Part shown: positions 12,064 through 62,899 of the stretch, piece after piece
Layout of the letters: each line of letters starts with the position of its first letter
How positions within the stretch are numbered: the stretch's first letter is position 1
NCBI GenBank assembly: GCA_964345045.1
Contig: CAYFPM010000003.1
Span: forward strand, 70,038 to 134,037
DNA: 64,000 nucleotides
Origin: an uncultured Gammaproteobacteria bacterium
Lineage (GTDB): Bacteria > Patescibacteriota > Patescibacteriia > Magasanikbacterales > UBA922
Direction: 5' to 3'
Position numbers and translations under genes: made by a program
Notes under the pieces: model-generated
Databases searched by the model: none
The model's input: only the letters and a program-made list of their open reading frames with translations
What the model was told of the DNA's origin: nothing

Positions 12064-13458
12064 TTACAAAACTCTGGTTAGCCTATCCAAAACTGTTCCA
12101 AAATTTATAAAAAAATCCAACAAAGAAACTAGAATTAAAAATGAAAAAGTGTACAGAAGACTTTTTTCTTTGTACCATTTTTTATTCTGCATACTTTTGT
12201 AAATCATGTAACCAGCAAAAAGTACTAAAAAAGGATAAATCTGAAACCTGTACCTAGATTGAACCACCGTTGGCAAAAGTACTAGTGGTGAGGTAGCGGC
12301 CATAACTGCTAGGTAATAAAAAATGGTTTTTTTCTTTTTGAGAAGCTCTACCAAACCAGAAAACCCAGCTAGAAAAACTCCGGCAATCCACACTAAGGAA
12401 CTAAAGACTACCGCACCTTCTCCCAAACCACTTTGGTAAAACCAAAAACCCATTGGCCTAATTAAACTAAAAAAGCGGATAAACCTAAGAAAGGTTAATT
12501 TGATAAAAACAAATGGATGGTTTAATAAAAACATTTTGAATTCCATACCTGCTTTTTCTTTTAGACCAAAAAAACCATTTTCATTTACATATTCTCGCAA
12601 AGGATTGTAGCCGTCTGCCAATTGGCCGCCATCGGCTTGTAGAGTATTCCCCACCCAAATATTAAACTCTCCGATCATGGTGGTAATGATAAGCTGATTG
12701 TAAATTAAGTAATTGCGAATTACCCATGGTGAAAGAGCGGCAAGAGCGGCAAACAAAAATACTGCCCCAGCTTTGTAAGATTTTTTTTGTATGTATAAAA
12801 ATAAAAAAATTGGAATAAAAAGTAAGATTGGAGGTCTCGTTAGCACCGCCAAACCGGTTATTAACCCAGATACCAGTGCAAGACAAATGTTTTTGTGGTC
12901 TTCATAGACTTTTACAAAAAGAAAAAGCGTCAACACTGTAAAAAATAAATACAAAGTTTCTGTCATGAGCATGGCCGAAATTTCGATTAAGTCTGGCCAA
13001 AAAGCAAATAAAGCTGCTGAGATTAGGGCAATATTTTTCGCCCCCTCCCCTGTCATCCCGAGCATAGCGAGAAATCTTTTTCTAATGTCTTTTTTCTCAT
13101 CAAGCTCTATATTTGAAAAAACCCTCAATGCAATCAAATATATTAACCAAACTGAAACGGTGTGAAGCAAAGCTTGGATAATCCAAACTACTTCGTAATG
13201 GTGACCAAAAATTTTGTAAACTCCCGCCAAAAAATACTCATAGCCTGGGCCAGCCCTCACTATAGCATTGTCCCACTCGTAGCTTAGGCTGCTATCTTCG
13301 CGAAAGCCAAAACCATCGACAATATTTACAGCAATTACGTCGTAAGCCTGTGCGTCCACCACCGGATGGATACGGAAGTAAAACGAATATATTAATGGCA
13401 GCAAAAAAGACAGGACCAAAATCCAAGCTAAAGTTTTGTTTTGTTTTAGTATTTGCAT
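12064..13458 (-). CDS. GT-C-like polytopic membrane glycosyltransferase (ArnT/PMT-like).
   Basis: It is a 464-aa protein with many TM helices. It is a paralogue in architecture to 5538..7232 and 17410..19053, and it follows a GT2 synthase gene. Confidence 0.65.
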   Translation of the reverse strand: MQILKQNKTLAWILVLSFLLPLIYSFYFRIHPVVDAQAYDVIAVNIVDGFGFREDSSLSYEWDNAIVRAGPGYEYFLAGVYKIFGHHYEVVWIIQALLHTVSVWLIYLIALRVFSNIELDEKKDIRKRFLAMLGMTGEGAKNIALISAALFAFWPDLIEISAMLMTETLYLFFTVLTLFLFVKVYEDHKNICLALVSGLITGLAVLTRPPILLFIPIFLFLYIQKKSYKAGAVFLFAALAALSPWVIRNYLIYNQLIITTMIGEFNIWVGNTLQADGGQLADGYNPLREYVNENGFFGLKEKAGMEFKMFLLNHPFVFIKLTFLRFIRFFSLIRPMGFWFYQSGLGEGAVVFSSLVWIAGVFLAGFSGLVELLKKKKTIFYYLAVMAATSPLVLLPTVVQSRYRFQIYPFLVLFAGYMIYKSMQNKKWYKEKSLLYTFSFLILVSLLDFFINFGTVLDRLTRVL

Positions 13459-13511
13459 AATTTTATAACAAAATTTTATCTTAAATTAGCAGAAAAATCA
13501 ACTTAAGCAAA

Positions 13512-13540
13512 TTGACATCCCTCCCTTTTTTTGCTAGGTT
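13512..13540 (+). promoter_or_regulatory. Sigma70-like promoter: TTGACA, a 17-nt spacer, then TAGGTT. It lies upstream of the high-GC cassette.
   Basis: Reading gives TTGACAtccctccctttttttgcTAGGTT. The -35 region TTGACATCCC is shared with the promoter at 54067. Confidence 0.4.
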
Positions 13541-13628
13541 AAAACTGCGCTCCAAAGAACCAAAATGGCTGTCTCTTCCTTAGAGACAACCATAAAATTC
13601 TTTGGAAAGGATAGGAAAGAAAGTGTCG

Positions 13629-14426
13629 AGTAATTTTGTAATCGCCACCACTACTTACTGCAGAGACCCTGCAGATGTCCAGGCTAGACTAACTGTGAGA
13701 ACAGTAAAAGAAGCCCGAAGCAGATTCACCCAAATTGTGGTGGCCGATCGTGGCAGCTCTCCTCAATTTGTAGCTATGCTCAAATCTGCCGGAGCAACTG
13801 TCTGTACTGCAGAAGGATCGCCTGGTCAGGCAACTCGTCTGGCTCTAAAAGAAGCTATGGACAGGGCCACCGGTGGCCACTGTGTAGTCTGGATGCCTTC
13901 GTGGATGTATAAGGCAGTAAGCGCAGCGCGCCAATTGGCCGAGAGAATCCACCACAACAAATTCGACCTTTGCCTGGCTTTTCGGACAGCAAACTCTATG
14001 AAAAGCCACCCCGCAGCTCAAATAGCAGCCGAGACTAGAGTCAATCAGTTTTTCAGAGGGTTGTTACCAGCTCCCAAGGAAGGTAGAAGGGTCAAAAGCT
14101 TCACTCCCCTATTCAAACTAGATCAGTGTGACCCAACCCTTGGCGTGTTTGCTATCGGAGCCAGAACTCTTCCGTTTTTTCTAGAGTATGCGGGCAACTA
14201 TGGCGACAATGTTTGGGATGCGATTCTTGTTCCTATCATGCAAATCATTGCTGACTCAAGCATGAAAAAACGGACTCTTTCAGCTAATCGATACAAGTTC
14301 CCCGAAGAGCTGCTTGGCTTGGTGGAGAAAAGAAAACTTTGGCTGGAACTGGCGGATGTAGAAGAAGCCCTAGTAGAGGAGGCAATCCGACTAGGTTGGA
14401 GGGATTCTCATGACAGACTGTGGTAA
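13629..14426 (+). CDS. Hypothetical GT-A-like nucleotide-diphospho-sugar transferase fold protein. It lies in a compositionally foreign high-GC cassette.
   Basis: The ORF is 13602..14426. I chose the GTG at 13629 because an AGGAAAG Shine-Dalgarno lies 5 nt upstream. The N-terminal VIATTTYCRD...IVVADRGSS resembles the GT-A beta1 strand and a DxD-like region. G+C is about 50% by eye against about 30% in the flanks. Confidence 0.55.
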   Translation, partial: SNFVIATTTYCRDPADVQARLTVRTVKEARSRFTQIVVADRGSSPQFVAMLKSAGATVCTAEGSPGQATRLALKEAMDRATGGHCVVWMPSWMYKAVSAARQLAERIHHNKFDLCLAFRTANSMKSHPAAQIAAETRVNQFFRGLLPAPKEGRRVKSFTPLFKLDQCDPTLGVFAIGARTLPFFLEYAGNYGDNVWDAILVPIMQIIADSSMKKRTLSANRYKFPEELLGLVEKRKLWLELADVEEALVEEAIRLGWRDSHDRLW

Positions 14427-14452
14427 GTACCACCAACCGCTCTTTTCCAAAA

Positions 14453-14479
14453 GAGGATTCACAATCCTCAACCCCTTCC
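14453..14479. repeat. Copy 1 of a short repeat element: a GAGGAT(T)/ATCCTC hairpin followed by AACCCCTTCC, then an AAATTTTAAA tract.
   Basis: gaggattcacaatcctcaaccccttcc lies directly 3' of the first high-GC gene. A second copy is at 15377..15402. Confidence 0.5.
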
Positions 14480-14547
14480 TTGTGTTTTTAAATTTTAAAG
14501 ACAAAAGGAAGTGGTAAAAAACACTTCAGAAAGACAAGAGACATTTC

Positions 14548-15183
14548 GTGAATAATTTCTCTTTTCCTGCCAGAATTTCTTGCCACGGAAGATTCAACTC
14601 CATTCGACTAATCCGAGCTACGGTCCCGATCATACCCGACGAGACAAATGCACTGATCGAATTGCGATGGCAAGAAGAGCTAGCAAGGAATCCTAAACTC
14701 CACAACGGCTCACTTGCAGCCCTGCATGCGCTGAATGCAAAGTGTGATCAACTAGAAGTTCGGTGGTGCGAAAGCAACTACCGAGAGTACCTGGGTGCCA
14801 GTCACCCTAACATCCCAAACGAACACCGACGACTACCTATGAGTGTAGGACTCCTCGTCCGAGTCAACTACTCTAGCTACCTAGTCGCAACTCGCAGTCC
14901 AGGGGTAGACTGGCCACTCATGCGTCACCTCAGCGCAGCTGGCGGAGTCAAAGCCGGTGAAAACCCCTTCGACGTAGTCCTGAGAGAGGCCAAAGAAGAA
15001 CTGGGGCTAGACCCTCATGAACTAGAGCCCCTTTCTTGCCTGGGTGTAGTCGAAGATCTGGTGAGGCCGCAGTACATGTTCGTCTTCGTGGCCGATGTAC
15101 AAATCTCCGAAGCAGAACTGATCAAGAGAGCCGCCGCGGCCCCCTCTGCAGAAGAAAACTGCCAACTTACTTTCCTGGATTAG
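14548..15183 (+). CDS. NUDIX hydrolase (high-GC cassette gene).
   Basis: The Nudix box is canonical: GGVKAGENPFDVVLREAKEELGL matches Gx5Ex7REUxEExGU. The ORF has a GTG start. The true start may be the internal Met at MSVGLL. Confidence 0.75.
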   Translation: MNNFSFPARISCHGRFNSIRLIRATVPIIPDETNALIELRWQEELARNPKLHNGSLAALHALNAKCDQLEVRWCESNYREYLGASHPNIPNEHRRLPMSVGLLVRVNYSSYLVATRSPGVDWPLMRHLSAAGGVKAGENPFDVVLREAKEELGLDPHELEPLSCLGVVEDLVRPQYMFVFVADVQISEAELIKRAAAAPSAEENCQLTFLD

Positions 15184-15376
15184 TTTTCTCTGAAGGCAAA
15201 CATGTCAGCCGATCCACGCTCTTTTGTGCCCGCCGCTTGGGCTGGCGCACAAATGGTCTTGGCAGCACATGACAACAAGCCCCTAGTAGAATGGGATACA
15301 GGAGATAAAGTCAACTATCCTACCTATATGGGTCGCCGCTTGGCCATGGTCAAGCCTTAAATTTATCGTTCATTTC

Positions 15377-15402
15377 GAGGATCTCCATCCTCAACCCCTT
15401 CC
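15377..15402. repeat. Copy 2 of the same repeat element.
   Basis: gaggatctccatcctcaaccccttcc lies 3' of the NUDIX gene region and is followed by caaaattttaaa. Confidence 0.5.
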
Positions 15403-15473
15403 CAAAATTTTAAACATTGATTACGCTGATTATTATAGATTACACCGAAATATGATTTAAAACTTTGGCAAAC

Positions 15474-15503
15474 AAAAAACATCCCACAAAGGGATGTTTT
15501 TTG
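15474..15503. terminator. Bidirectional intrinsic terminator.
   Basis: aaaaaaCATCCCacaaaGGGATGtttttt is a GC stem flanked by an A-run and a T-run. It sits between the + cassette and the 3' end of the minus-strand GT2 gene. Confidence 0.6.
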
Positions 15504-15539
15504 TCATTGTCAGCTTGATTGGAAATTCAGTAAAACAAT

Positions 15540-36540: not shown

Positions 36541-39500
36541 TTAGAGAGATAGAACTGCAGGTGTACTTGAGTTGGAGTTCAATCCAGAAACAAGGTAACC
36601 GTTGGTCCAGTCGTTAGTTGTAGTTGCGTGAGTTCCTAGGTGACGGTCAGACCAGATGAAGTCATCGTGTAGACCACTATCGATGTTAGTTACTGTAGAC
36701 ATCAATGTAGCACCTAGAGAGGTTGAACTACCGTTGGTTGATGAAGCATCTGCAAAAGCAGCGTCACCACCAAGACGAGTAGAAATAGAGTCACCAGAGC
36801 TAGCTCCGGAAACAGTACCACGAAGAACGAAGGTACGAGGAGCAGTCTTAGATACACGTACTTCTCTAGCACCTTGGCTTAGACCACCTTCTTCGCTGGT
36901 GTTCAAGTTAACTTCTAGGAATCCGCCTCCACCAATTGAAGTGCTGTCTGCAGATTGTGAGAACAACAAGTCGTCTGGTGAATTTGTAATGTCGTAAACT
37001 TCGAAGTTAGTTACTGTTACAGATGAAGTTGTAACATCGAATGTGAATTTAGCCACACCGATATCACCTGTGTTAGCAGTTACTTTAAACTTGAACAAGT
37101 CGTTTACACCGTTTGTAAGTGTAGAACCAATTGGAAGCTGTGTAATTGTAGGTACAGCAGCGTACAAGTAGTGAGTATTTCCGTTAGGAGCATCGCTACC
37201 TAGGTATTCTACACTACCACTTCCGGTTAGATCACCCTTACCTTCGATGTCTCCGGCAGCGGCGATGTTGAAACCAACAGCATGACCACCAACTGTTACG
37301 TTTTGGTTGCTGGCAACCACGCTTAGGTCAGCTTTTAGGTATACAATCATACCGTCTGTATCATCTTTGTCTACAACGAAAGCGTCGTTGGCAAATTTGA
37401 TAACAGGGGTTGTACTTGTAGGTTGTACGCTTCCCAATCTTACACCATCTTCGTCTTCAAGATACAGCAAGCTGTAATCGTTGTAAGATGAACTGCTGGT
37501 GTCTGTTACACGTTGTGTAAACATGATTTGTTCGATTTCTACATCTTCTGTAGATGTAGCTAGGAATACGAATGATGCCAAAGTAGCACCAGTTGTACCA
37601 CCTGCGAACAATCTGGCAGTTGGGTTAGCACTGTCAGAAGAAACCTGAACAGTACCACCAGAAGTACCAACAGTCATAGCTTGACCACTAGCAGAGTCGA
37701 TAACTTCGCTCACGCTAGAATTGGTGTCTACACCATTGGCAGTTACTTGGTTGGCAGAAGCAGTAGCAAAAGTGTGAGTACCGGCAGTAGCACCACCAGC
37801 GATGTCTACACGTACTTCTACTACAAGCTTAGCACCTTTTTTAACAACGAATTGATCGTCACCACTTAGGTTGAAGGTGAAGTTTTCGTCATTACCGGCA
37901 GTAGCGTCACTACCATTTTGAACTTCGGCTAGTACTTCTACAGTACCAGAACCGTTGAAAGAGTCACCATCTTTGTCAACCCAAAGACGGATGTTTTGTA
38001 GATCTTGAGTAATGGCTGTAGCACTAGTTGTGTCGCTTACGATCAACTGAGTAACTTTCATGTCCTCAGAAGAACCGGCAGCGTCCAACTGAACTTTGGC
38101 TACCAATACTCCACTTGTACCAGGAGCATAAGTCTGTGCTGGAGGTGTAGACAAAGTTGTTACACGCAAAGCAGCAGTCTTAATGGTTTGAGCATTAGCA
38201 CTTACTGCTGACTGTGGAGTAGCATAAGTACCTAGAGTAATAGTGTCACCACTATCTACACCAGTAGCGTCAAAGTTTGTAGTATTACGCATGTCGATAG
38301 CAAATGTAACTGTGTCATCTGCTACAGGAGTAGAATCAATATTGGCCTTTAGGGTTACAATATTGTCTCCTGGTTGTAGAGTAATAGTGTCTGTTGAAGT
38401 GGCATAACCAACTCCAGCAGTAGAACCTACACCATCAACACCACCAGTAAGAGCATTTCCTTCTGCATCGTACAGAATCAAACTGTCAAATGCTTCTGGA
38501 GCAGCAGTACCAGTAGTGGTAATTCTAAAGGTCAAGGTAGAAATATCTACAGCTTCACCAGTTACGTGGAAGTTCCAAGAAGCCAAAGCAACATTGCTTA
38601 CATCTTCTGGAACGTCTTGAGTTTGTACGTCATTTACCTTGGTAACGTTAATTTTACCTTGGGAAATAGTAATAGTGTTAGTCAAAGCACTAGCACTGTT
38701 GGTTGGAGATCTGTAGTAGTTACTATTTAGATCTTTGGCCAATACGTGTGAAACTCTCTTAACGTCCAAGTTAACAGTTCTAGAAGAACCGGCAACTAGG
38801 TCACCGTATACGTCAAAGGTTCTGTTTTTACCTTTTTCTAGCATACAGTCGCTACCACAGGCAGACAAATCAAAGTTGATGTATTTGTCTTTCAATTCTC
38901 CGGTGGCAATAACATTGTTATTGTAGCGAAGTTCGATGTTTTGTACATCGTCATCACTAGAAGTACCAGAGTTGTTCAACATGATACGTTCAATTTGGAA
39001 GTCTTCTGTAGCAACAGTTACTTTCAAACTAGCCAAGTGTACGTCTGTGGTACCTACTTGTTTTGTAGAATTACCAACAGAAGTACCTTCTGCTACAATA
39101 ACAGTACCCAAAGTTACACCAGAGTTCATAGTTACAGCATTACCATCTAGTGGCAAGTTGCCTACAACTGTAGAGTCGGTGTCAATGCTGTAAAGTTCTA
39201 GACTTGGGATGTTTCCACCACCAACAGAACTAGCCATGTCACCTACCAAGGTGTAAGTTTCGGTTTGTCCACTCTTGATAGTAATGTCTTCTGTGAAGGT
39301 TACAAGACTATCAGAGTTAAGAGTTTTACCAGATTCATTCAATAGGTCACCGTTTTCGTCAACTACGTTGATTTTACTAAAATCAGAGTCAACAGCGATG
39401 TTTCCACCACGTTTAACCATGAATGATTTGATAACTACATCACCACCGCTAGCAGTAAATCTAACTTTGGTGAAAGGAACACGAACAGCACTTTTTACTG

Positions 39501-40329
39501 CAAATGTTCCACTTGGTGTGTCGGCAGCCAAAGCAACAGTCAAAGTACCGCTAGAAACAGTACCTTCACCTTCTTCTTCGCCAGGACCTACTACTCCGTC
39601 ACCAGCACCCTGTGTAGGATCACTGTAAACGCTAGCAGCAGTTTTTGAACCAGAAGCTTCTGGAACGCTGTCTAGAACAGATTGAGAGACAGTTTGAACT
39701 TCTGAACTTTTTACAGTTCCGTCAACCATCATTCTTTCACCATTCTCTACATAGTATACGTCACTGCTACCACTGGTTTTTACAAACATACCATCGTGTG
39801 GAGTTGATTCTGTCAACTCATCACCACGAGATACGTAGTTTGGCCAGAATGGATCAGCGATGTCATATACTTTTTTAGCCCAATCGCTTCCGTATAGTTC
39901 GCGAGCTACTTGCTCACTACCAATTTTTGAGATTTTGTTGCCTGGTTCTACAACGTATACGCTTGGTGAAATTTGTACTTTTACCAAAGCTGAACCAGCT
40001 CTGAAGTTGACACCGAAAGGAGCACTTGAAGGTGCTGGGTAAGCGTCAACACAGGTTGTTGGGATTTCTTGTACACCAGAGAAATCTTCGTACCATGTAC
40101 GATATACTTCTGATTTAGGGAAGTACATGCGTTCCATGTCAGAGTTTAGAAGGTATACAGCACTGTTACCAGGAACTTTGAACAAGTCACCGGCTTCTAG
40201 TGTAGGACATTCTTCTGCAGCATGAGCTACCATTGGCACAAGGGCAGCAATACCCATGCTCCAAAGGATAGTTGTTACTACAACTGACCATGTGAAAGCT
40301 TTCTTTCCCATTTGAATTGCATTCGCCAT
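36541..40329 (-). CDS. Large secreted surface protein (1262 aa), S-layer/adhesin-like. It is Thr/Ser/Gly/Val-rich with repeated beta-sandwich (Ig/BIG-like) regions.
   Basis: A signal peptide is present (MANAIQMGKKAFTWSVVVTTILWSMGIAALVPMVAHA|AEE). Complexity is low and there are many short repeats such as TVTxxDV. It has its own terminator and a 230-nt leader. Confidence 0.85.
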   Translation of the reverse strand: MANAIQMGKKAFTWSVVVTTILWSMGIAALVPMVAHAAEECPTLEAGDLFKVPGNSAVYLLNSDMERMYFPKSEVYRTWYEDFSGVQEIPTTCVDAYPAPSSAPFGVNFRAGSALVKVQISPSVYVVEPGNKISKIGSEQVARELYGSDWAKKVYDIADPFWPNYVSRGDELTESTPHDGMFVKTSGSSDVYYVENGERMMVDGTVKSSEVQTVSQSVLDSVPEASGSKTAASVYSDPTQGAGDGVVGPGEEEGEGTVSSGTLTVALAADTPSGTFAVKSAVRVPFTKVRFTASGGDVVIKSFMVKRGGNIAVDSDFSKINVVDENGDLLNESGKTLNSDSLVTFTEDITIKSGQTETYTLVGDMASSVGGGNIPSLELYSIDTDSTVVGNLPLDGNAVTMNSGVTLGTVIVAEGTSVGNSTKQVGTTDVHLASLKVTVATEDFQIERIMLNNSGTSSDDDVQNIELRYNNNVIATGELKDKYINFDLSACGSDCMLEKGKNRTFDVYGDLVAGSSRTVNLDVKRVSHVLAKDLNSNYYRSPTNSASALTNTITISQGKINVTKVNDVQTQDVPEDVSNVALASWNFHVTGEAVDISTLTFRITTTGTAAPEAFDSLILYDAEGNALTGGVDGVGSTAGVGYATSTDTITLQPGDNIVTLKANIDSTPVADDTVTFAIDMRNTTNFDATGVDSGDTITLGTYATPQSAVSANAQTIKTAALRVTTLSTPPAQTYAPGTSGVLVAKVQLDAAGSSEDMKVTQLIVSDTTSATAITQDLQNIRLWVDKDGDSFNGSGTVEVLAEVQNGSDATAGNDENFTFNLSGDDQFVVKKGAKLVVEVRVDIAGGATAGTHTFATASANQVTANGVDTNSSVSEVIDSASGQAMTVGTSGGTVQVSSDSANPTARLFAGGTTGATLASFVFLATSTEDVEIEQIMFTQRVTDTSSSSYNDYSLLYLEDEDGVRLGSVQPTSTTPVIKFANDAFVVDKDDTDGMIVYLKADLSVVASNQNVTVGGHAVGFNIAAAGDIEGKGDLTGSGSVEYLGSDAPNGNTHYLYAAVPTITQLPIGSTLTNGVNDLFKFKVTANTGDIGVAKFTFDVTTSSVTVTNFEVYDITNSPDDLLFSQSADSTSIGGGGFLEVNLNTSEEGGLSQGAREVRVSKTAPRTFVLRGTVSGASSGDSISTRLGGDAAFADASSTNGSSTSLGATLMSTVTNIDSGLHDDFIWSDRHLGTHATTTNDWTNGYLVSGLNSNSSTPAVLSL

Positions 40330-40560: not shown

Positions 40561-41991
40561 TTAATTTTCTAAATTATTTTCTTCTACAACAGTATCTTCC
40601 ATTTCTTCTTTTACCTCGTCAAAGCTCGCCTCAGGACGAGCGTCGACGGGTTCCTCTTTATTTTCTAGATTTTCAATTTCTTCTACTACTTTGGCAGCAT
40701 CGTTTACTACTTGTTTTACTTCTACTACCAATTCTTTAACTGTCTTTTTTACCTCTGCTAATTCTTGTACCTTTTGCAAAGCACCTTCTAGATCATCATT
40801 TTCTATTAAGCTATCCACTTCTACCAAAGTTTCACCAGCCTTTTTAGTAGCTTCTACTGTTGTTTCTCCTACTTCGTCTACAGTTTCTTTTACAGTCTTT
40901 TCTTTATCATTATTCTTAATTTCCTCTTCATTTATATTTTCTTCTACATTATTTTCTTCTGGTTCTTCGGAAGAATTCTCTTCTACAACTTCTTCGGTTA
41001 CTTCTTCTGTTTCAGCTTCTTTTACTACTTTGGCTACCGGAATTGTACTAAGAGTAGAACTGGAAGAAACCAAAATTCCTGTTTCTTCTAGTTCTGTATC
41101 CAAGGCTTCTATTTCGGATACGATTCTATCTATTCTTTTTTCTATTTTTTCTTTTACTTCTTCTTTGTTTACACCAGCTTCAGCATCTTCTTTCTTTTTT
41201 ACCAATACTTCTACGGCTTTTACACCGGTGTCTTGGATCAAGTTTTCTACTTCTCCCACTTCTTTGGTCAAATCTTTTGATTCTTGTTCTTCTTCTGCTA
41301 TTTCTTCTAGGTTTTCTGTTTCTTCATCACCAGCTTCTGTTTCCTTTTCCAATTCTGTAGGTTCGATAATATCTTTTTTCTCTCCCAAAGCTAGTAATAT
41401 CTCTTCTGTTTTTTCTTCTACTACTTTGGCTATGGCTACAGCTTGTTTTGGAGATTTTGATTCTGTTTTTTCCAAACTTTTGTTAGCAGATTCTATTTTC
41501 TTTTTCAAAGACTTTATAGAAGCAGCGGCTTGTTTGGTATTTGTAGCTTTTTTAAATTCTTCTACTTTTACAGCTGCATGTTTTAGATTGGTGGCAGCCT
41601 TTCCTTCTTCCGAACCAATTACAGTAGCTACCAAAAGTTCTGTGGTTTCGGCTGCTAATTTTACACCATATAGAGCTTCTCCAGGCAAACTATCTTGTGA
41701 AGCGCTAACACTAGCAATCCAACCTCCTACAGCCACAATTCCTACCAAAAATACTGTTAGACTAAATCTAGTTGCCAAAAGTAATTTGTTTGGAACAAAA
41801 ATGTGTAAAATTCCTGAAAGACTTTCCAATAAACCATTTGCACTAAAAGAGGTTTTTTCTTTTGTTTCTTGTGAAGTTGTGATTGTGCTTAACAATTGTT
41901 TTTTGTTTTCCAAAACCCAAGAAGGATCAGGGTTTACCTGACTTTTTGATTCTCTAATTGCTTTTAGTTGTGCAGCGAGTTCTTTACTCAT
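40561..41991 (-). CDS. Putative anti-sigma factor. It has a single TM and a DUF5667-like extracytoplasmic domain with an acidic, Glu-rich C-terminus.
   Basis: It lies immediately downstream of the ECF sigma gene with an 8-nt overlap. The TM is RFSLTVFLVGIVAVGGWIASV. The C-terminus is E/K-rich, repetitive and predicted coiled-coil. Confidence 0.6.
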   Translation of the reverse strand: MSKELAAQLKAIRESKSQVNPDPSWVLENKKQLLSTITTSQETKEKTSFSANGLLESLSGILHIFVPNKLLLATRFSLTVFLVGIVAVGGWIASVSASQDSLPGEALYGVKLAAETTELLVATVIGSEEGKAATNLKHAAVKVEEFKKATNTKQAAASIKSLKKKIESANKSLEKTESKSPKQAVAIAKVVEEKTEEILLALGEKKDIIEPTELEKETEAGDEETENLEEIAEEEQESKDLTKEVGEVENLIQDTGVKAVEVLVKKKEDAEAGVNKEEVKEKIEKRIDRIVSEIEALDTELEETGILVSSSSTLSTIPVAKVVKEAETEEVTEEVVEENSSEEPEENNVEENINEEEIKNNDKEKTVKETVDEVGETTVEATKKAGETLVEVDSLIENDDLEGALQKVQELAEVKKTVKELVVEVKQVVNDAAKVVEEIENLENKEEPVDARPEASFDEVKEEMEDTVVEENNLEN

Positions 41992-42541
41992 ATTTATCTT
42001 CCAAAAGTTCTTTTAACTTATTTATAGCTCTATGTAGTGTTACACGCACACTACTGGCTTTTTTATCCAGAACTTCGGCGATTTCTTTGGTACTAAGACC
42101 TTCTACATGTCTTAGATGAATAACATCTTGGTATTCTTGTTTTAAAGATTTTATAGTTTCTAATAACTGCTCGGCATCCTGACTAACTGCAGTCTCGTGA
42201 TGTAAATCGGTTTTTGAATTTATTCCAACCGCTTCTTCTATTGGCAGCTCTTTTCTTTTGGCTCTGTCTCTGTAAACATCTACAATCTTGTTGCGAGCGA
42301 TAGCGTAAACCAAGGCTCTAAAGCTTTTTATCTCTATATCCTTATTCTTGGTTAAATAATCCCAAGCTTTTAGAAAAACCTCACTAGTGACATCCTCGGC
42401 CTCTTCTTTGTTGGATATTTTGAAATAAACGAACCTATATATTGGTTCTACGTATTTGTCGTACAAAACAGCATAAGATTCGGCATCTTTGTTGTTGCGA
42501 ACCTTGTACAAGAACAATTTTTCTTTAATATTGCTGTTCAT
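41984..42541 (-). CDS. RNA polymerase sigma-70 factor, ECF subfamily.
   Basis: Region 2 reads YVEPIYRFVYFKISNKEEAEDVTSEVFLKAW and region 4 reads LSTKEIAEVLDKKASSVRVTLHRAINKL. I chose the start at the ATG (MNSNIKE) rather than the upstream TTG. Confidence 0.85.
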   Translation of the reverse strand: MNSNIKEKLFLYKVRNNKDAESYAVLYDKYVEPIYRFVYFKISNKEEAEDVTSEVFLKAWDYLTKNKDIEIKSFRALVYAIARNKIVDVYRDRAKRKELPIEEAVGINSKTDLHHETAVSQDAEQLLETIKSLKQEYQDVIHLRHVEGLSTKEIAEVLDKKASSVRVTLHRAINKLKELLEDKYE

Positions 42542-42908
42542 AAGAGTAGACGAGAAAATAGGAAAAGTGTTACACCTAAATATCAAAATGCCTATAACGG
42601 CGCTTATTATACATTATTATTATATGTTTGAAAACGTACCTTATCAGGACAAATTCAGTCTTTGTTCCAACTTTTTTACTTCTTTTTATCAAATTTTAGA
42701 ACGGCATATTTATACCAAATTATCTACAAAAAGTCAACCCCAACGACCACCTTTTGTATAGACTATTGTATACAAATACAGGAATTTTTAGTCTTTTTTA
42801 GTAGAAATTTAGAGCCAAAAACAATTCTAAAAACTTAATTTTTTAAATTTTTGAATACCAAAATTATTCTCTATAAATGTTTTTTGCCAAAATATTAGAC
42901 AAAAAATC

Positions 42909-42971: not shown

Positions 42972-43283
42972 ATGACTGAGGAACACAAAGAAATAGTCCG
43001 AATCTCCATTTCAGAAGCAGCTCGATTGTTTGGGGTAAATGCCCAAACTATTCGTAGAGCTATCAAAAATGGTGAAGTGACCTACGTAGTAGTGGCTGGC
43101 CGATACAAGCTTAATTTTGAAAGCGTTTTGAAATGGTCTCAGAAAAAAACCACTGTCAAAAACAAAACAAATAGATATGGAATTGGCCAATATGTAGACA
43201 AATGGAAAATATCCAATACTCTCTACTCGCCAAACAAAAAAAGCGTCCGGCCTGTGGACGAAAACGAAACAGACAAACAATAA
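42972..43283 (+). CDS. Excisionase-family (HTH_17-like) helix-turn-helix DNA-binding protein.
   Basis: ISISEAARLFGVNAQTIRRAIKNGEV is a typical excisionase/MerR-type HTH. The protein is 103 aa. Confidence 0.7.
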   Translation: MTEEHKEIVRISISEAARLFGVNAQTIRRAIKNGEVTYVVVAGRYKLNFESVLKWSQKKTTVKNKTNRYGIGQYVDKWKISNTLYSPNKKSVRPVDENETDKQ

Positions 43284-43320: not shown

Positions 43321-43328
43321 GGAATGAA

Positions 43329-43377
43329 GGTTGGCCCGCGTCCTGCTACAGCCGAAGCTGGAGGACGCGAGCCAACC
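43329..43377 (-). terminator. GC-rich 15-bp inverted repeat. It is a probable terminator or boundary hairpin for the foreign small gene.
   Basis: GGTTGGCCCGCGTCC, then 19 nt, then GGACGCGAGCCAACC. It lies directly 3' (minus strand) of 43395..43703. No clean U-run is present. Confidence 0.4.
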
Positions 43378-43394: not shown

Positions 43395-43703
43395 CTAGCT
43401 ACCCTCGATCTCGAGGTGGCCGGCACGAGTGTTGGCGTTGTAGAAGCACTGCATCGACATCTCGTTCTGGCCCACCCGCAGGTAGCCCTTGATACAGAAC
43501 ATGCCCGGCGAGCCCGACTCGTACTCGAGTCCGGTAACCCTCACCTGCAGCTCCCGCACGCTGGCTCCGGACGCCATTGGTATGGCGTGGAACGTGAGCA
43601 GCCAGGGCCGCTCCGTGTCGTCGAAAGCCCGAGTGAACGCGTTGATCACGTCCGGGGCACTGGGGTTCTTGCAAGTCTCCTGGATATCGTAGCGAGTGGT
43701 CAT
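43395..43703 (-). CDS. Hypothetical 102-aa protein encoded by a compositionally foreign gene (about 60% G+C by eye).
   Basis: A strong GAGGAGGG Shine-Dalgarno lies 5 nt upstream of the ATG at 43703. The sequence is not low-complexity. The two overlapping longer ORFs are treated as GC shadow frames. Confidence 0.6.
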   Translation of the reverse strand: MTTRYDIQETCKNPSAPDVINAFTRAFDDTERPWLLTFHAIPMASGASVRELQVRVTGLEYESGSPGMFCIKGYLRVGQNEMSMQCFYNANTRAGHLEIEGS

Positions 43704-43756
43704 AAGACCCTCCTCTGTGGCTGTTTTCAAATAGCTGGTGCCACATAACCAGACCA

Positions 43757-53589: not shown

Positions 53590-53991
53590 TTAGTACTCAA
53601 GACTAATCCCCCGTTGTCCTTTTTCCCCCACATACGGCATAGGGCGAAAATAAGGTTGCGAGGTTGCAGCTGGAGGTTTTTTGCAGGTATACCACGGCTT
53701 TGGGCTATTGCCACAACGATAGATACGTGCTCCTGGCCACCTGTTACAGACCCTATTTCTATAGGTAGTAAATGCCTCCCCTTTTCTTGGAGTCATACTG
53801 ATCTTGGTAGAGTATCCTCTACTATCCCCCACATACACAGCAAAAGAACAAATGTGTGGTTTGGGCAAATGGCTTAGCGCCAATTCGTCGACACAGTGTG
53901 GTAGCCAACCGTGCAACCAATACAGTACTCCCAAAACCAAGAGCACATGGATACCTCGGATCTTTAGAGCCTCTTTGGCCAATCTGTTCAT
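53590..53991 (-). CDS. Small secreted cysteine-rich hypothetical protein (133 aa). It is the first gene of the high-GC block.
   Basis: An AAGGGAG Shine-Dalgarno precedes the ATG. The N-terminus has a signal/TM segment (GIHVLLVLGVLYWLHGWLP). The mature part contains 6 Cys. Confidence 0.55.
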   Translation of the reverse strand: MNRLAKEALKIRGIHVLLVLGVLYWLHGWLPHCVDELALSHLPKPHICSFAVYVGDSRGYSTKISMTPRKGEAFTTYRNRVCNRWPGARIYRCGNSPKPWYTCKKPPAATSQPYFRPMPYVGEKGQRGISLEY

Positions 53992-54066
53992 GTTACTCCC
54001 TTTCTTCTATCGAAGACATAGTAAAATATCAATAATTTGAGCAAATGTCAAGTATTATTTTGAAAC

Positions 54067-54095
54067 TTTTTTGGCTTGACATCCCCGCAATATAG
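54067..54095 (+). promoter_or_regulatory. Sigma70-like promoter: TTGACA, a 17-nt spacer, then TAGACT.
   Basis: TTGACAtccccgcaatatagtgcTAGACT. The -35 context TTGACATCCC is identical to the promoter at 13512. Confidence 0.45.
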
Positions 54096-54158
54096 TGCTA
54101 GACTGATCAGTCTTTCATAATTTATAGTGAAAGTAAGTTCTTTTTATTTCTACTAGCC

Positions 54159-54209
54159 GGTTGAACACGAGTTTCTAGCTTGAAGGAGGTTAGAACCTCG
54201 TGTTCAACC
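54159..54209 (+). promoter_or_regulatory. Leader hairpin with a 13-bp stem. Its loop contains a GAAGGAGG Shine-Dalgarno that precedes a 15-codon GTG uORF (54200..54247). The uORF stop overlaps the main ATG as ATGA.
   Basis: GGTTGAACACGAG...CTCGTGTTCAACC followed by aaaaaattttt. This is a possible attenuator or translational-coupling element. Confidence 0.35.
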
Positions 54210-54243
54210 AAAAAATTTTTCCAAATAGAAAAGGAAAAGAAGC

Positions 54244-55737
54244 ATGAATCACAGCTACGAAATTTGGTCCAGGCAACTGATAAACGCGGCAGACAAGGCC
54301 CTCCAAGATGTCGCTGCCCAACGAAAGCCCAACATGGGCTGGTGGCAAAGCTACTTGAAGCAATACAAGTTGCTAGGTGGAAAAACAGAAAAACTAGAAC
54401 GCTCTCCGGTGCTCGAGGCGGCCAACAATGTCTTTCATGTTTGGATAGCTCTTACCAACAGTATTCCGCTGTTGGTAGGGGTAGAGACAGGTATGGCCGA
54501 TCGCCACTACCTAGAAGCCTTTGTCCCAGACGAGTTCTTGGCGGCTATGACCGCCATCTTCTACGACATCTTGCCCCCTCACCAGAGGAATATCCTCATC
54601 AACAACCTGATTACGGCTCGTTTTCAAGAGGCTGCGACACCCTGGATTGCAGACCAGCGACAGCAGGCTCCGCAAACTCTAGAAAACACAAATATAAACA
54701 AGAGAGAAAATCTCTATCGAGAAATTCAAGCTCTTGCTAGGCTTTGGTTTGCTTCCACCAAGTTCGATCCTTTACCTCAGGCCGCTATCCAGTTCGGGCC
54801 ACAGGGGATCGAGCTAGATGCCACTCGATCGGAAAAAGTTGCTCACAATCTTTTGGCCAGTGAATTTGGTTTTGGTCCGGGTGGAGACCCCGAACCAGAA
54901 CACCGTCGCTGGGCCAAAAGGGTGATTGCCCAGTGTCGACACCGGCATCCTTGGGCTAGACCAGAGCGACTCGAGCGCTACACCGATGCCTTGCAGACGG
55001 TTCGAGACTACTATATTGGCGAGGATTCTGGAGAAGCTAGCGAGAAAATCCGTGATCAGGCCGAGAGGATGATGAGTTCTTTTGGTCTAGATGACGATTT
55101 TGCCTTGATCATGATCTTGGCAGAAGCTTTGGCACTAGCCACTGACTTTTTCTTGCACCCCAATATGTCGAACGAAGACAGGCTACGGGTGGTAGAGCAC
55201 ACCACTTACCAGCAGCTAATTCACAATGAGCTGAACCAACACGAGTGGCGAGTGATCTTGCATACTTTCTTGAGCATTGCCAGCAAAGGATCTCCTCTGG
55301 GAGTTCTTCGTATCGAACAGCTAGATCCGGATCTAGAAGAGGCATTGCAAACCAGGTTCAGAGCTATGGCTCTCATGTTCATGAAGGATCATGACTACAC
55401 GGTCAAAGAACCTCTGCACGTCTTGGCCGAACAAAAAGCCAACAGCCGTATGGCCAAAGCCAAACGTTTGGCAATGAGCAGCTTCTGGTGGGTCTTGCGC
55501 TTTGTACCGGTCTTGCTTTTCTCACGCGACCGAGCCAAGTTTGCTGCCAAGTGGCAGGAACTGCGCTCTATCTGGGGTCTACCTCCCAAGCCAGTCGAGG
55601 AAGTGGTAGAGACAGAGGCTTTGCCAGAGTCGGCCGACAAGACTGATCCTACAACAGAGGATGTAGAGACCACCGGCGATGTTGCCGAGGTCATCCCCAT
55701 GCGTTCTGCGGTTGGGGATCGTCCTTCCGAAAAATAA
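54244..55737 (+). CDS. Hypothetical soluble 497-aa protein of no recognisable family (elevated G+C).
   Basis: The long ORF is in a different frame from the Arg-rich overlapping ORF 54180..54740. Tandem terminators follow it. Confidence 0.65.
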   Translation: MNHSYEIWSRQLINAADKALQDVAAQRKPNMGWWQSYLKQYKLLGGKTEKLERSPVLEAANNVFHVWIALTNSIPLLVGVETGMADRHYLEAFVPDEFLAAMTAIFYDILPPHQRNILINNLITARFQEAATPWIADQRQQAPQTLENTNINKRENLYREIQALARLWFASTKFDPLPQAAIQFGPQGIELDATRSEKVAHNLLASEFGFGPGGDPEPEHRRWAKRVIAQCRHRHPWARPERLERYTDALQTVRDYYIGEDSGEASEKIRDQAERMMSSFGLDDDFALIMILAEALALATDFFLHPNMSNEDRLRVVEHTTYQQLIHNELNQHEWRVILHTFLSIASKGSPLGVLRIEQLDPDLEEALQTRFRAMALMFMKDHDYTVKEPLHVLAEQKANSRMAKAKRLAMSSFWWVLRFVPVLLFSRDRAKFAAKWQELRSIWGLPPKPVEEVVETEALPESADKTDPTTEDVETTGDVAEVIPMRSAVGDRPSEK

Positions 55738-55751
55738 TTAGCTAGTAGTTT

Positions 55752-55848
55752 GGTACGAATAGTATTCGTACCTCCCATTCCTTTTGTTCTAAAATTTTTA
55801 GACCAAAAGCAAATAAAAAATCCTGAGTTACACTCAGGATTTTTTATT
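55752..55848. terminator. Tandem terminators between convergent genes.
   Basis: GGTACGAATagtATTCGTACC with a T-rich tail is at 55752-55790. aaaaaaTCCTGAGTtacACTCAGGAttttttatttc is at 55815-55848 and is bidirectional. Confidence 0.65.
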
Positions 55849-55980
55849 TCTCACTAAAACTTTTTTGCAAAGTTTTACTGGGAAGGTACGCCGGGCCGGA
55901 GCAGCTACTCGAGTTTCATCCGAAGATGATCCAAGAGAAGTGCTCCGGCCCTGGTTTAGGCGCGGACGATGAGAAGCTTG

Positions 55981-57957
55981 CTACGGACAGCCGTCGTCAG
56001 GCACACCGTTGCAGTCGTTGTCGTACCCCAGGTCGGCCGGGTTGGCGGGATCGCTCTCGCACCACTCGACCGCCCCAGGATGGTTCTGGAAACCCGTCGG
56101 GGTATCGTCGCAGTCACCACCGAGCAACTGAGAGACCGGAATCGAGCTGTTGCTAGACCCTCGACAAGGCGACACCTCGCAGTAGCCGTCCCCGTCGTCG
56201 TCCCAATCGTCCGCCGTGCCGTCGCTCTGCGGACCACCGTTGGCACCACTGGCACCATACGGCGTCCTACCGCGCTGATCCACGTAGGGCGCGCACAAGT
56301 TGCACGCCCAGTACGAACCGGCGGGGCAGGTCTGCTGCTGGGTGCAGCTACCACCCGTGGCCACGCACATGTCGGTGACCTCGTCGCAGACCTGACCGGC
56401 ACTGCAGGTGACCACAGTGCCCGACTGGCAGGTACCGCTCTGGCACGTCTCCGTTCCGTTGCAGTACGAACCATCGTCACAGTCCGCGTTCACCGTACAC
56501 TGCGGCGGAGCCGCGGCGCAGTCGGGATCGTCTCCGTCGACGAGCCCGTCGGCGTCATTGTCCCAGTTGTCCGTGCAGTTGCCAAAGGCCTGGGTCTCGG
56601 GCTCGAAGGCCCCATCCCCGTCGTTGTCCTCGGCGCTGGTACAGACGTGACCCGTGGGCGTGGTCGTCGCAGTGTTGGTCGACGAACAGCCCCAGAGGAA
56701 GCCGGCCGGCAAGTTCGCCGGGGTGCGGTTCTCGAGGGGAGATCCGTTCCCGGTGATACCAGTCGGCGTCTGCATGCATTCTGCGTCCGAGGTCGGACCG
56801 TTGCAACAGTCGGGAATCCAGGACTGAACGCACTGACCGTTGACCGCCCCGTGCGTGGTGCACGCGTTGTTGTCGGCACAGTCCACGCACTGGTTGCTCT
56901 GGCAGGCGAAGCCCACCGCACAATCCGCATCCGTGGCACAGCCCAAGCACGTACCGGCCGTCACCCCCGAGATGTCCGAACACACACCGCTGGCGCAGTC
57001 GTTGTGATCGTCACAGCAGAGGGGGTTGGTGCTGGCCGTGTTCACGCAAGCGTGATTCACGGCGTTGTCGGTGGTACAGGCGTCGCCGTCGTCGCAGTCG
57101 AGAACCGTACAGATGTTCGCGGTGCAAACTTCGTCGGTACGACAGTGGGCGTCCACGAGACACTGCTCGCAGGTACCCGCCGCCGAGGTCGAGGTCTCGG
57201 TACAGAACAAGCCGTCTTGGCACGGAGCCGAGGCAGGCGCGGCGTTGCAACAGTTGGGAATGGCCTGGTTCACGCACCCCATCGTCCCGACGGTGTCCGT
57301 GGTGCAGGCGTTGCCATCGTCGCAGCCGGTGCAGGTGTCGGTGGTATCATCGCAGTACTCGGTAGCGAGGCAGGCACTGGCGCCGCTCTGGCAGGTACCG
57401 GAGACCATGTCGCAGGTCTCGGCACCGTTGCAGAAGAGGCCGTCACTGCAGTCCGCGTCCGAGAGACAGCTGACGCAGCGATCGCCCGCCTCGTCGCACA
57501 TCTCGGTGGCGGCACACGGAGGCGCGGTCACTTGGCAGGTACGTCCGGTGGTGGACGTCCCCACGCAGGTGGCGCTCCCGTTGCAGAAGAGGCCATCGGC
57601 CCCGCAGTCCGCGTCGGAGAGGCACTGACAGCTGATCCCCTCGTCGACATTGCCATCGCAGTTGTCGTCGATACCGTTGCAGATCTCGGTGGCGCCGGGG
57701 TAGACGTTCGGGTTGTGATCGTCACAGTCCGGAGGCCCATCGACGATGGCTCCATCGTTGCAGTTGTTGTCGTAGTACGTCTGATTCGGAGAACCGTCGC
57801 CGTCGCTGTCGATGGAGTTCTTGTCATCGCAGATGTGGACACGGACAGTGCCCGAAACGTTGACGAAGTCGGTACCGCAAGCCGTGAGGCCCGCGGTGAG
57901 CAGGAAGGTGAAGAGAGACAGACAGAGTCGCTTGGCTTGCGCCATGGTGACCTCCAA
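55981..57957 (-). CDS. Cys-rich repeat lipoprotein (658 aa). It carries Myxococcales-type cysteine-rich repeats and MopE-like putative metal-binding motifs. G+C is very high, roughly 65-70% by eye.
   Basis: A GGAGG Shine-Dalgarno lies 6 nt upstream. The lipoprotein signal is MAQAKRLCLSLFTFLLTAGLTAC. Recurring motifs include DCDDHNPNVYPGATEICNGIDDNCDG, CxSDADCxDGLFCNGxETC and CDDGNACTTDxxxxxxC. Confidence 0.8.
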   Translation of the reverse strand: MEVTMAQAKRLCLSLFTFLLTAGLTACGTDFVNVSGTVRVHICDDKNSIDSDGDGSPNQTYYDNNCNDGAIVDGPPDCDDHNPNVYPGATEICNGIDDNCDGNVDEGISCQCLSDADCGADGLFCNGSATCVGTSTTGRTCQVTAPPCAATEMCDEAGDRCVSCLSDADCSDGLFCNGAETCDMVSGTCQSGASACLATEYCDDTTDTCTGCDDGNACTTDTVGTMGCVNQAIPNCCNAAPASAPCQDGLFCTETSTSAAGTCEQCLVDAHCRTDEVCTANICTVLDCDDGDACTTDNAVNHACVNTASTNPLCCDDHNDCASGVCSDISGVTAGTCLGCATDADCAVGFACQSNQCVDCADNNACTTHGAVNGQCVQSWIPDCCNGPTSDAECMQTPTGITGNGSPLENRTPANLPAGFLWGCSSTNTATTTPTGHVCTSAEDNDGDGAFEPETQAFGNCTDNWDNDADGLVDGDDPDCAAAPPQCTVNADCDDGSYCNGTETCQSGTCQSGTVVTCSAGQVCDEVTDMCVATGGSCTQQQTCPAGSYWACNLCAPYVDQRGRTPYGASGANGGPQSDGTADDWDDDGDGYCEVSPCRGSSNSSIPVSQLLGGDCDDTPTGFQNHPGAVEWCESDPANPADLGYDNDCNGVPDDGCP

Positions 57958-58851: not shown

Positions 58852-58868
58852 GATCTGGTTCTCCTTAT

Positions 58869-62617: not shown

Positions 62618-62899
62618 TGTGAAATCGGACGGAAAACCGCCCCGAATTGGGAATCCGAGGTAACGGCTTCCACAATTTTTGGCTTGTAATCCACATAAGC
62701 CAAAAATTGTAAAAGCCGATCGGTAAAAAACCGTCCAAACATTATAAAGAACTCCGCTTTGGGTACAATTGTCCCACTTTAAGCGAACGGATAAAGATAC
62801 CACAAAATCAAACTTTTGTCAAGATTTTTTGCTAAATTTAGCTAAAATAAGCAAAAAACGCCCAAAGTAGGACGTTTTTATACTTGTTTAAATTGTTTT

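Follow-up and report, generated by a model that had tools for sequence, protein, structure and literature searches.

The 64,000-nucleotide stretch analysed here (the window) comes from contig CAYFPM010000003.1 (positions 70,038 to 134,037, forward strand) of assembly GCA_964345045.1, deposited as an uncultured Gammaproteobacteria bacterium and placed by GTDB among the Patescibacteriota (Magasanikbacterales; UBA922). Within a minus-strand cluster of surface-glycan (sugar-coat) genes, this DNA carries a plus-strand islet of two genes (13512-15414), the first (ORF1) encoding a protein with a predicted glycosyltransferase-A (GT-A) fold and the second a NUDIX-domain protein. We interpret it, with a probability of roughly 0.6, as a horizontally acquired, decaying islet that occupies a variable slot of a Patescibacteria surface-glycan locus. 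Both genes are followed by a 3' two-hairpin module that also follows other G+C-rich units of the window, and that probably marks a shared acquisition route of foreign genes.

The islet differs from its surroundings in both composition and strand. Its G+C content is 49–53%, with 0.46–0.60 at third codon positions (GC3), whereas the host genes around it have a G+C of 0.30–0.38 and a GC3 of 0.22–0.36. By segment, G+C and GC3 are 0.488 and 0.455 for ORF1 (13602/13623-14426), 0.525 and 0.524 for the NUDIX open reading frame (ORF; 14548-15183), and 0.528 and 0.604 for the stretch beyond the TAG codon that ends it (15203-15361), all on the plus strand. The window overall is AT-rich (~30–38% G+C) with a few richer blocks. 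An earlier reading of the bare sequence (the original prediction) had called the pair compositionally foreign, a view that the calculated values bear out, host-typical composition not being found, even if its estimate of 50–55% G+C gives way to the measured 49–53%. The listing of ORFs by strand likewise agrees with its claim that plus-strand genes interrupt a minus-strand AT-rich glycan operon: from 433 to 32464 the long ORFs are all on the minus strand, with 13602-14426 and 14548-15183 the sole exceptions.

The slot itself lies between an upstream gene of glycosyltransferase (GT) family 2 and a GT39 gene (12064-13458), both on the minus strand; the GT39 homologues carry source names that include Candidatus Magasanikbacteria and Patescibacteria group bacterium, which points to a Patescibacteria host that looks like Magasanikbacteria. 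The islet is absent from the best syntenic relative (L120), whose GT2 and GT39 orthologues are 74% and 59% identical, respectively; there, a single gene for a 224-aa methyltransferase stands between GT2 and GT39, on the same strand, in DNA of uniformly 30–35% G+C. The DNA alignment pairs L120 4643-5337 with window 16240-15543 and L120 6013-7211 with window 13464-12203, and the GT2–GT39 interval measures 675 bp in L120 versus 2,078 bp in the window. No remnant of the methyltransferase was seen in the window's GT2–GT39 interval when it was aligned to L120, and two other relatives have a methyltransferase gene directly upstream of GT39. Because the relative has a methyltransferase gene in this place, we read the islet as filling a variable slot in the glycan locus.

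At its right side the islet is closed by a canonical host terminator that works in both directions (AAAAAACATCCC-ACAAA-GGGATGTTTTTT, 15477-15505, both strands) and at which the upstream minus-strand GT2 gene also ends. A 10-bp direct repeat, CAAAATTTTA, stands at 13469-13478 and 15403-15412 on the plus strand, the sole two exact copies in the window; the probability that a 10-mer is shared by chance between both flank windows is ~0.03, and the pair may be a junction repeat or may be due to chance. A comparison of flanks within the window found no consistent counterpart at the other G+C-rich units. Candidate terminal inverted repeats (CTTTTACAA ... TTGTAAAAA) were rejected, as such 9-mers number 131 in the window, which also holds no tRNA or tmRNA genes as possible integration sites. 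A promoter-like site, TTGATT-17-TAAAAT (13501-13473, minus strand), precedes GT39 at the edge of the islet interval; in relatives, GT39 overlaps the upstream methyltransferase gene and has no separate promoter. A new GT39 promoter seems to have arrived with the insertion or to have been forced by it.

ORF1 (13623-14426, plus strand), which we describe as a degenerate representative of an unnamed family of GT-A-fold proteins, encodes 267 aa from the GTG at 13623, or 274 aa from the TTG at 13602. While a word-indexed homology search returned only ORF1 itself, an exhaustive HMMER search gave 113 cluster representatives at E ≤ 1e-3, all of ~240–270 aa, the closest being 33% identical (E 1e-20). 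Loci with family members come from Paceibacterota, Saccharibacteria, Anderseniibacteriota and other Patescibacteria, from Nano- and Woesearchaeota, and from Bdellovibrionales and Oligoflexia. The family is soluble, ~250 aa long, unnamed and uncharacterised, with the signature E-P-E-K and the motifs VIATTT.Y, VVVD.GS, MG..RRQA, W.EPEK, R..SL.SYP..Q...E..GN, LD.WFGPR, YGD.WDSI.IP, HP.EQ and KR..QL. Comparison with profiles of GT families, a check proposed in the original prediction, gave a divided result: ORF1 has no Pfam match, whereas 22 of 72 relatives match Glycos_transf_2 at E ≤ 0.01 (best E 5e-8). The relative P0004 scores 20.4 bits against that family, under its cut-off of 23.3, and ORF1 itself reaches NCBIfam PpgS at E 0.0074 with 15.7 bits, below the threshold of 370. 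The family profile matches dolichol-phosphate mannose synthase (DPMS; 5mlz), with E-P-E lying over D-A-D.

Structure prediction supports the GT-A assignment made earlier from the sequence. An AlphaFold 2 model of ORF1 built on the 72-sequence family alignment, which reflects the family as much as ORF1, has a predicted local distance difference test score (pLDDT) of 91 and a predicted template modelling score of 0.90; from the single sequence the pLDDT is 40. Foldseek against the PDB gave GpgS, MpgS, mannosylglycerate synthase and GtrB (E ~3e-7 to 1e-5, template modelling scores 0.5–0.6), and on the modelled structure ORF1 is a GT-A-fold protein of GT2/GpgS-like type. It shares with the GT-A glycosyltransferases (GT81 GpgS, MpgS, GT78 mannosylglycerate synthase and GT2 DPMS/GtrB) a Rossmann-like fold, but its identity to them is only 11–16%, and it has P-S-W at the metal motif. 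At this motif ORF1 reads P92-S93-W94-M95, its relatives E (93%), P, E (99%) and K (96%). Of the 36 columns with at least 80% conservation, ORF1 departs from the consensus at 13, where the family median is 2 and the next worst sequence has 8; it is the most degenerate family member examined. We infer that ORF1 lost its catalytic metal site under relaxed selection.

For the intact family, a role in glycan metabolism is plausible from gene neighbourhoods. Sugar-nucleotide or glycan genes surround the family gene in five of 11 loci, and the neighbours include RmlD/epimerase, GDP-mannose-dehydratase-like, DegT, GT2 and GT39 genes, and also Mur ligase and FtsW. In four Patescibacteria loci (L004, L006, L008 and L013) the family genes are G+C-richer than their flanks. 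The last of these, on an uncultured Saccharibacteria contig, holds an intact family gene (374-1162) that keeps WMEPEK and forms a single-gene islet of 52% G+C versus 37% in its flanks; its promoter is a perfect TTGACA-17-TATAAT, and GGGAAGGA/TCCTTCCC is its terminator stem.

The second gene does carry a NUDIX domain, as the original prediction had it. Its Nudix box, GGVKAGENPFDVVLREAKEELGL (residues 131–153), is intact and canonical, and Pfam NUDIX (PF00293) matches residues 98–184 with E 1.4e-8 and 35.3 bits (cut-off 21.1), covering positions 4–95 of the 134 in the profile. These belong to the N-terminal 211 codons (14548-15183, plus strand), which end at an in-frame TAG (15181-15183). The frame runs on for 58 codons to a TAA at 15359-15361 (15184-15361, plus strand) and encodes the C-terminal part of the domain: if the TAG is read as an amino acid, the match grows to residues 98–227 and profile positions 4–131. 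The NUDIX fold is therefore not complete in a single reading frame, profile positions 96–131 being encoded after the TAG. The continuation is the sole stop-free frame of six (p ~0.07), and its G+C pattern by codon position is like that of the upstream part. Recoding of TAG in the host was rejected: TAG terminates 16 of 47 tabulated window ORFs, 12 of them host genes, most with a further stop within a few codons, and the code is standard. Since the host uses TAG as a stop and the frame continues past it, the gene is split, most simply by a nonsense mutation; programmed read-through appears less likely. An ATG at 15203, with GAAGG 5–6 nt upstream, is a possible restart that would give a 52-aa C-terminal piece. 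Although gene 2 shares the Nudix box GX5EX7REUXEEXGU and the profile match with NUDIX hydrolases (CoA pyrophosphatase 1nqy, MutT), it is extremely divergent from them, with a 97-aa N-terminal extension of unknown type and a TAG-interrupted domain. A homologue search with the protein found only itself.

The original prediction had tied the two genes to nucleotide-sugar metabolism or quality control linked to the surrounding pathway. On that view they would be a working accessory pair, in which the GT-A protein would transfer or bind a sugar and the NUDIX protein would hydrolyse a nucleotide-sugar or a by-product. ORF1 relatives do stand among sugar-nucleotide and glycan genes in the five loci mentioned, the consensus promoter of the islet is strong, the NUDIX gene keeps an intact box, and a restart codon with a Shine-Dalgarno-like GAAGG lies past the TAG. 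In a Parcubacteria locus (L017), moreover, Pfam identifies a NUDIX gene directly downstream of an ORF1 relative. That protein is not orthologous, however: it has only the Nudix box in common with ours (E 0.004), and its N-terminal domain is different and zinc-ribbon-like. The GT-A and NUDIX genes are adjacent in this one of 11 related loci, and tblastn of the window's NUDIX protein against 18 ORF1-related loci found no relative beside an ORF1 homologue. ORF1 is without E92, E94 and K95, which 93–99% of relatives have, and is broken at the 13 of 36 conserved columns, and the NUDIX domain is cut at about profile position 95 of 134 by a stop codon that the host uses. A functioning pair thus seems rather unlikely, and the role assigned to it doubtful. 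On our preferred reading, that of an acquired and decaying islet, both genes would be under relaxed selection, decaying or at best re-purposed, and unlikely to work together as nucleotide-sugar enzymes.

Each islet gene is followed by a real repeat, at the two places where the original prediction had put it. The core of copy a (14453-14499) reads GAGGAT-TCACA-ATCCTC-AACCCCTTCC-TTGTGTTTTT-AAATTTTAAA, that of copy b (15377-15414) GAGGAT-CTCC-ATCCTC-AACCCCTTCC-C-A-AAATTTTAAA; the loops are 5 and 4 nt, respectively, and the 10-nt TTGTGTTTTT is missing from b. CTCAACCCCTTCC occurs exactly twice in the window, where the full 26-nt pattern is expected 0.00 times. The repeat had been taken as one and the same element marking a cassette. 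The copies are genuine, yet they are not confined to the islet and belong to a wider set, which follows 6–7 of the 8 G+C-rich units of the window, an answer to the earlier question whether copies flank other G+C-rich genes. Copy a extends over 14453-14522 (plus strand), with hairpin 1 at 14453-14469, the C-rich AACCCCTTCC at 14470-14479, and hairpin 2 with an A-rich tail to 14522; the fold of 14427-14547 has -31 kcal/mol (z = -4.9), and a covariance model (R1) gives it 67.8 bits. Copy b (15377-15414, plus strand) has the hairpin 1 stem of a, but the 5' arm of its hairpin 2 is deleted and it reaches only 9.3 bits. Copy c (55752-55825, plus strand; z = -5.2; 62.6 bits) follows a G+C-rich orphan gene of 497 aa (54244-55737, with a TTGACATCCC promoter at 54076), copy d (60250-60338, minus strand; 63.5 bits) the G+C-rich gene 60365-62803, and copy e (58318-58426, minus strand; 62.9 bits), in which TTCTC replaces TTCC, the two-gene G+C-rich unit 58438-60068. 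Two short variants complete the set: f (43321-43377, minus strand), after the G+C-rich gene 43399-43704, consists of a G+C-rich hairpin, TTCATTCC and AAAATAAC, and h (55855-55951, minus strand), after the G+C-rich gene 55981-57946, of a G+C-rich hairpin, ACCTTCC and a TAAAACTTT/AAAGTTTTA hairpin.

The common plan is a unit-specific hairpin 1, whose G+C content tracks that of its gene, a short spacer, (C/A)TTCC and, in four copies, an AT-rich conserved hairpin 2. The arms of the latter are TTCCTT(G/T)TG(T/C)T.. and ..G(A/G)C(A/C)AAAAG(G/A), followed by (T)GTAAAAAA, and it spans 14466-14522 in a, 55768-55825 in c, 60250-60309 in d and 58318-58384 in e, the last two on the minus strand. Of these elements, variants b, f and h retain hairpin 1 and TTCC but no intact hairpin 2. 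With their identical hairpin 1 stem, a and b either arose by duplication in place or are two cassettes of a single source.

Several lines of evidence indicate that the likeness is real. First, the four long copies are 68% identical over ~55 nt. Second, of the cells in the 15 pairs of hairpin 2, 85% are paired, and six pairs are changed on both sides, a result matched by only 1–3 of 500 shuffles; slid controls were 45–58% paired with 0–1 double-changed pairs. Several of the pairs are G-U on the sense strand. Third, model R1 found in the window only the four long copies (63–68 bits), the next independent match being at 21.9 and the opposite-strand palindromic echoes of the copies at 26–30 bits. 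The module is also associated with the G+C-rich units. Of the four occurrences of CCCNTTCC in the window, three come directly after hairpins behind plus-strand G+C-rich genes (14472, 15395 and 55774), and [AC]TTCC within 100 nt past the stop codon marks six of eight G+C-rich units versus one of 19 host genes (Fisher p = 6e-4, for a motif chosen post hoc). The two-hairpin module follows none of the 19 window host genes, which terminate in canonical stem-plus-T-run terminators. A hairpin-energy filter for C[AC]TTCC sites was discarded, as it gave no discrimination, any G+C-rich 70-mer folding.

Exact copies of the 26-nt element (GAGGAT-N4-5-ATCCTCAACCCCTTCC), which the original prediction had wished to see sought elsewhere, were found in none of the GTDB species genomes, IMG/VR or the JGI metagenomes. 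A metagenome scan with TTCCTTTTGTTC-N6-30-GACMAAAAG gave 93 stretches, none of them module-like; this pattern has an extra A relative to copies a and d and tested only the c type, the corrected module pattern being TTCCTTKTGYTY-N6-30-GRCAAAAGR. A degenerate pattern gave 18 matches in IMG/VR, none of which fit the covariance model, and R1 found nothing in 18 loci from the candidate phyla radiation (CPR) and DPANN or in three syntenic-relative loci. The searches outside this genome reached only part of the module's variation. No Rfam family reached its gathering threshold in the window, and the islet held chance-level matches only.

At its other end, the islet has a promoter of the consensus extended -10 type (13512-13540, plus strand), with TTGACA, a 17-nt spacer ending in TGC, and TAGGTT. 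The original prediction had seen the same promoter at a distant G+C-rich block, giving 54067. TTGACATCCC indeed occurs exactly twice in the window, at 13512 and at 54076, 9 nt from that coordinate, versus 0.08 expected, and both sites are upstream of plus-strand G+C-rich genes. Most of what they share is nevertheless the consensus of the genome. TTGACA-N14-TGN-TANNNT has eight sites in the window versus 0.07 expected, six before G+C-rich units and two before ordinary host genes (near 42909 and 47406), and three more sites match the consensus without the TG. Because these eight sites include host genes, the likeness of 13512 and 54076 is mainly that of the recipient's consensus, with TCCC and some of the TGCTAG -10 region as the only bases specific to the pair. 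Beyond the promoter consensus elements, no common 5' leader sequence was found between the units. A structured leader with a nested hairpin (13551-13606, plus strand) lies between the islet promoter and the ribosome-binding site, and 13535-13625 folds with -25.2 kcal/mol (z = -3.6). The leader of the 54244 gene (54100-54243) is long and folds with -46.8 kcal/mol (z = -5.2); a 13-bp stem in it encloses GAAGGAGG.

These features suggest how foreign genes might be fitted into this genome. The islet is driven by a promoter of the recipient's own consensus type, and hairpin 1 would most simply be the end of the imported segment. The module follows genes of GC3 ~0.5 (a and c) and of 0.71–0.77 (d and the two-gene unit ending at e), and is unlikely to come from a single donor because it follows units of such different GC3. 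As the part from (C/A)TTCC through hairpin 2 is common to units of GC3 ~0.5 and ~0.75, it looks like a contribution of the recipient or of a shared vehicle rather than of the donors, and the module would then mark a common route by which foreign genes are installed.

What the module does can be judged partly from its form. It resembles repetitive extragenic palindromes, bacterial interspersed mosaic elements (REP/BIME) and terminator-like repeats in being made of short palindromes just downstream of genes, in the 3' untranslated region (UTR), where they are plausibly mRNA-stabilising. Unlike REP/BIME, it stands only after G+C-rich units, its hairpin 1 varies, and it is represented by four long and three short copies in one genome. 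Were it a variant intrinsic terminator, the likeness of the copies would come from functional convergence or from low-complexity AT-rich sequence and carry no information on acquisition. Its position right after stop codons would suit a terminator, as would a pyrimidine-rich tract (CCUUCCUUUUGUUC) behind hairpin 1 and the T-rich sequence that then follows in several copies. A consensus terminator scan, however, called neither a nor b and made no call for the module. A C-rich spacer of 3–10 nt separates the stem from the T-rich sequence, b has no T-run, and the short variants b, f and h are without a T-rich tract. The host genes use a clearly different, canonical type, and copy a lies inside a presumed two-gene transcript: with NUDIX downstream it must be read through, if that gene is transcribed at all. 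Moreover, 68% identity over ~55 nt together with covariation goes beyond what convergence would give. We therefore regard a plain terminator as unlikely. Compensatory changes and the sense-strand G-U pairs favour a role at the RNA level, and within the transcript hairpin 2 most likely serves as a structure for the 3' end, for processing or for stabilisation, and not as a classical terminator.

The original prediction had gone further and compared the pair to an integron cassette, and a more general form of this idea would make the G+C-rich units mobile cassettes of a site-specific capture system, an integron analogue or one with a hairpin-recognising recombinase, with the module as recombination site. 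The units share several features with attC cassettes: a 3' hairpin in gene orientation, foreign cargo, many orphans and partly arrayed units. Each unit has an imperfect 3' hairpin whose structure is conserved above its sequence, and such a structured element of variable sequence stands at each foreign unit, both islet genes included. Five units are contiguous at 53.5–62.9 kb. The imported segments look promoter-less, the G+C-rich DNA running from near the 5' UTR or start codon to hairpin 1; the 10-bp direct repeat surrounds the islet (p ~0.03); and the breaks of single-run assemblies around the islands would fit strain-level variation.

Against this, Pfam and NCBIfam scans found no integrase, transposase, recombinase or reverse transcriptase among window ORFs of more than ~100 aa, which answers, for these ORFs, the original prediction's question of an integron integrase or recombinase on the 229,673-bp contig. 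By inspection, the four long copies have no RYYYAAC core at the proximal end and no GTTRRRY (the attC R''/R' cores) at the distal end, where they read GTGGTAAAAAAC, CTTGTAAAAATAG, TTTGTAAAAAAG and CAAATAAAAAATC; hairpin 2, at ~45 nt, is below typical attC length. Cassettes would be promoter-less, but six G+C-rich units carry a TTGACA-N14-TGN-TANNNT promoter of their own, and the units have their own long AT-rich leaders. They are dispersed over the window on both strands, those other than the islet are without consistent flanking repeats, and the G-U pairs favour a sense-strand RNA role. No copy was found in the other genomes and viruses searched, with part of the module's variation covered. 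The integron-like cassette is thus not supported, and the wider capture system is quite improbable. More speculative still is an undescribed capture route in which promoter-less segments of transcript length (5' UTR, coding sequence and terminator hairpin) would be installed beside a two-hairpin site of the recipient or vehicle, beginning at (C/A)TTCC, by an integron-like or RNA-mediated process with no known integrase, the GT-A and NUDIX genes being two cassettes, each with its site.

An assembly or binning chimera, with foreign reads joined into a Patescibacteria contig, would explain the abrupt jump in composition and the short contigs that the G+C-rich 56–59 kb region yields in single-run assemblies, but is hardly credible, because two contigs from different runs, one from ENA (60,841 bp) and one from Logan (3,743 bp), contain the islet and both junctions with 100% identity, a third assembly covers the left junction (99.8% identity), and AT-rich promoters and terminators of host type alternate with each G+C-rich gene.

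Our preference for an acquired, decaying islet must be set against several points. No donor was found, nor a close homologue of either gene, and the case for transfer therefore has no phylogenetic support; collections of phages and plasmids gave no match for the islet DNA or the NUDIX protein, and scans with PADLOC defence-system and PHROGs profiles gave nothing useful. The syntenic relative is distant, at 59–74% protein identity. The description of ORF1 as degenerate rests on motif loss, and GT-A proteins without a DXD motif can remain active or bind ligand. Reading through the TAG adds little to the Pfam score of the NUDIX domain (35.3 to 36.2 bits), and TAG suppression, or assembly of two NUDIX pieces after a restart at ATG 15203, could preserve function. 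Finally, four to seven copies, all within one 64-kb window, underlie the module statistics, and these same data served to define the motif.

An acquired islet is a known kind of feature in Patescibacteria genomes, where islands and individually transferred genes are common and make up as much as 13% of genome length (PMC12455944). Like the islets described there, ours is a small atypical block in a streamlined AT-rich CPR genome with no adjoining mobility gene, situated in a variable cell-surface glycan locus and absent from a syntenic relative. It is unlike them in its two-hairpin 3' module and host-type promoters, of which a keyword search of that paper found no mention, and in that both genes look inactivated. 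Taken alone, then, the islet is one more acquired, decaying islet in a CPR glycan locus, and shows turnover by gene replacement. Two aspects reach beyond it. The unnamed GT-A family that ORF1 anchors has at least 113 cluster representatives in Patescibacteria, DPANN archaea and predatory bacteria, often in glycan loci and, in several CPR genomes, as G+C-rich single-gene islets. In addition, a covarying 3' module and host-consensus promoters are common to foreign genes of very different composition; should the rest of the genome follow this pattern, it would show in what way imported genes are wired into an ultra-small symbiont, or else uncover a new mechanism of cassettes.

Further G+C-rich DNA of the window lies in a contiguous five-unit array (53590-62803) set in AT-rich spacers, with G+C of 0.47–0.65 and GC3 up to 0.81. 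The units are 53590-53991 (minus strand), 54244-55737 (plus), 55981-57946 (minus), 58438-60068 (minus, two overlapping genes) and 60365-62803 (minus); a consensus promoter precedes most of them, and one product of five has a Pfam match. The latter, encoded by 55981-57946, looks secreted (N-terminus MAQAKRLCLSLFTFLLTAGLTA) and has a Cu-binding_MopE/putative metal-binding Cys-rich motif (Pfam E 1.4e-12); its gene has internal repeats in a 34-nt register (56442-57597) and a GC3 of 0.81 versus ~0.27 in the host. Around here (~56284-59258) the single-run contigs L115–L117 are only 842–2,975 bp long, as against 60.8 kb in the AT-rich part, as might result from strain-level variation or from islands being covered unevenly.

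A smaller islet, 43399-43704 (minus strand), encodes a 101-aa orphan of 59% G+C, with a TTGACA-17-TATTTT promoter (43788-43760) and a G+C-rich terminator hairpin of 15 bp, and lies just downstream of an HTH_17 (excisionase/MerR-like) gene (42972-43283). Adjoining this helix-turn-helix gene and the 43-kb islet is a gene pair (40561-42586) in which a sigma factor gene of the extracytoplasmic function type (41984-42586, minus strand) overlaps a repeat-rich gene of 476 aa (40561-41991) with no Pfam match, which may encode an anti-sigma factor. A 1,262-aa ORF (36541-40329, minus strand), with no Pfam match, has a G+C of 0.43. We do not read it as foreign because its G+C is raised at codon positions 1 and 2 only, with a GC3 of 0.30, which points to amino-acid composition rather than foreign origin.

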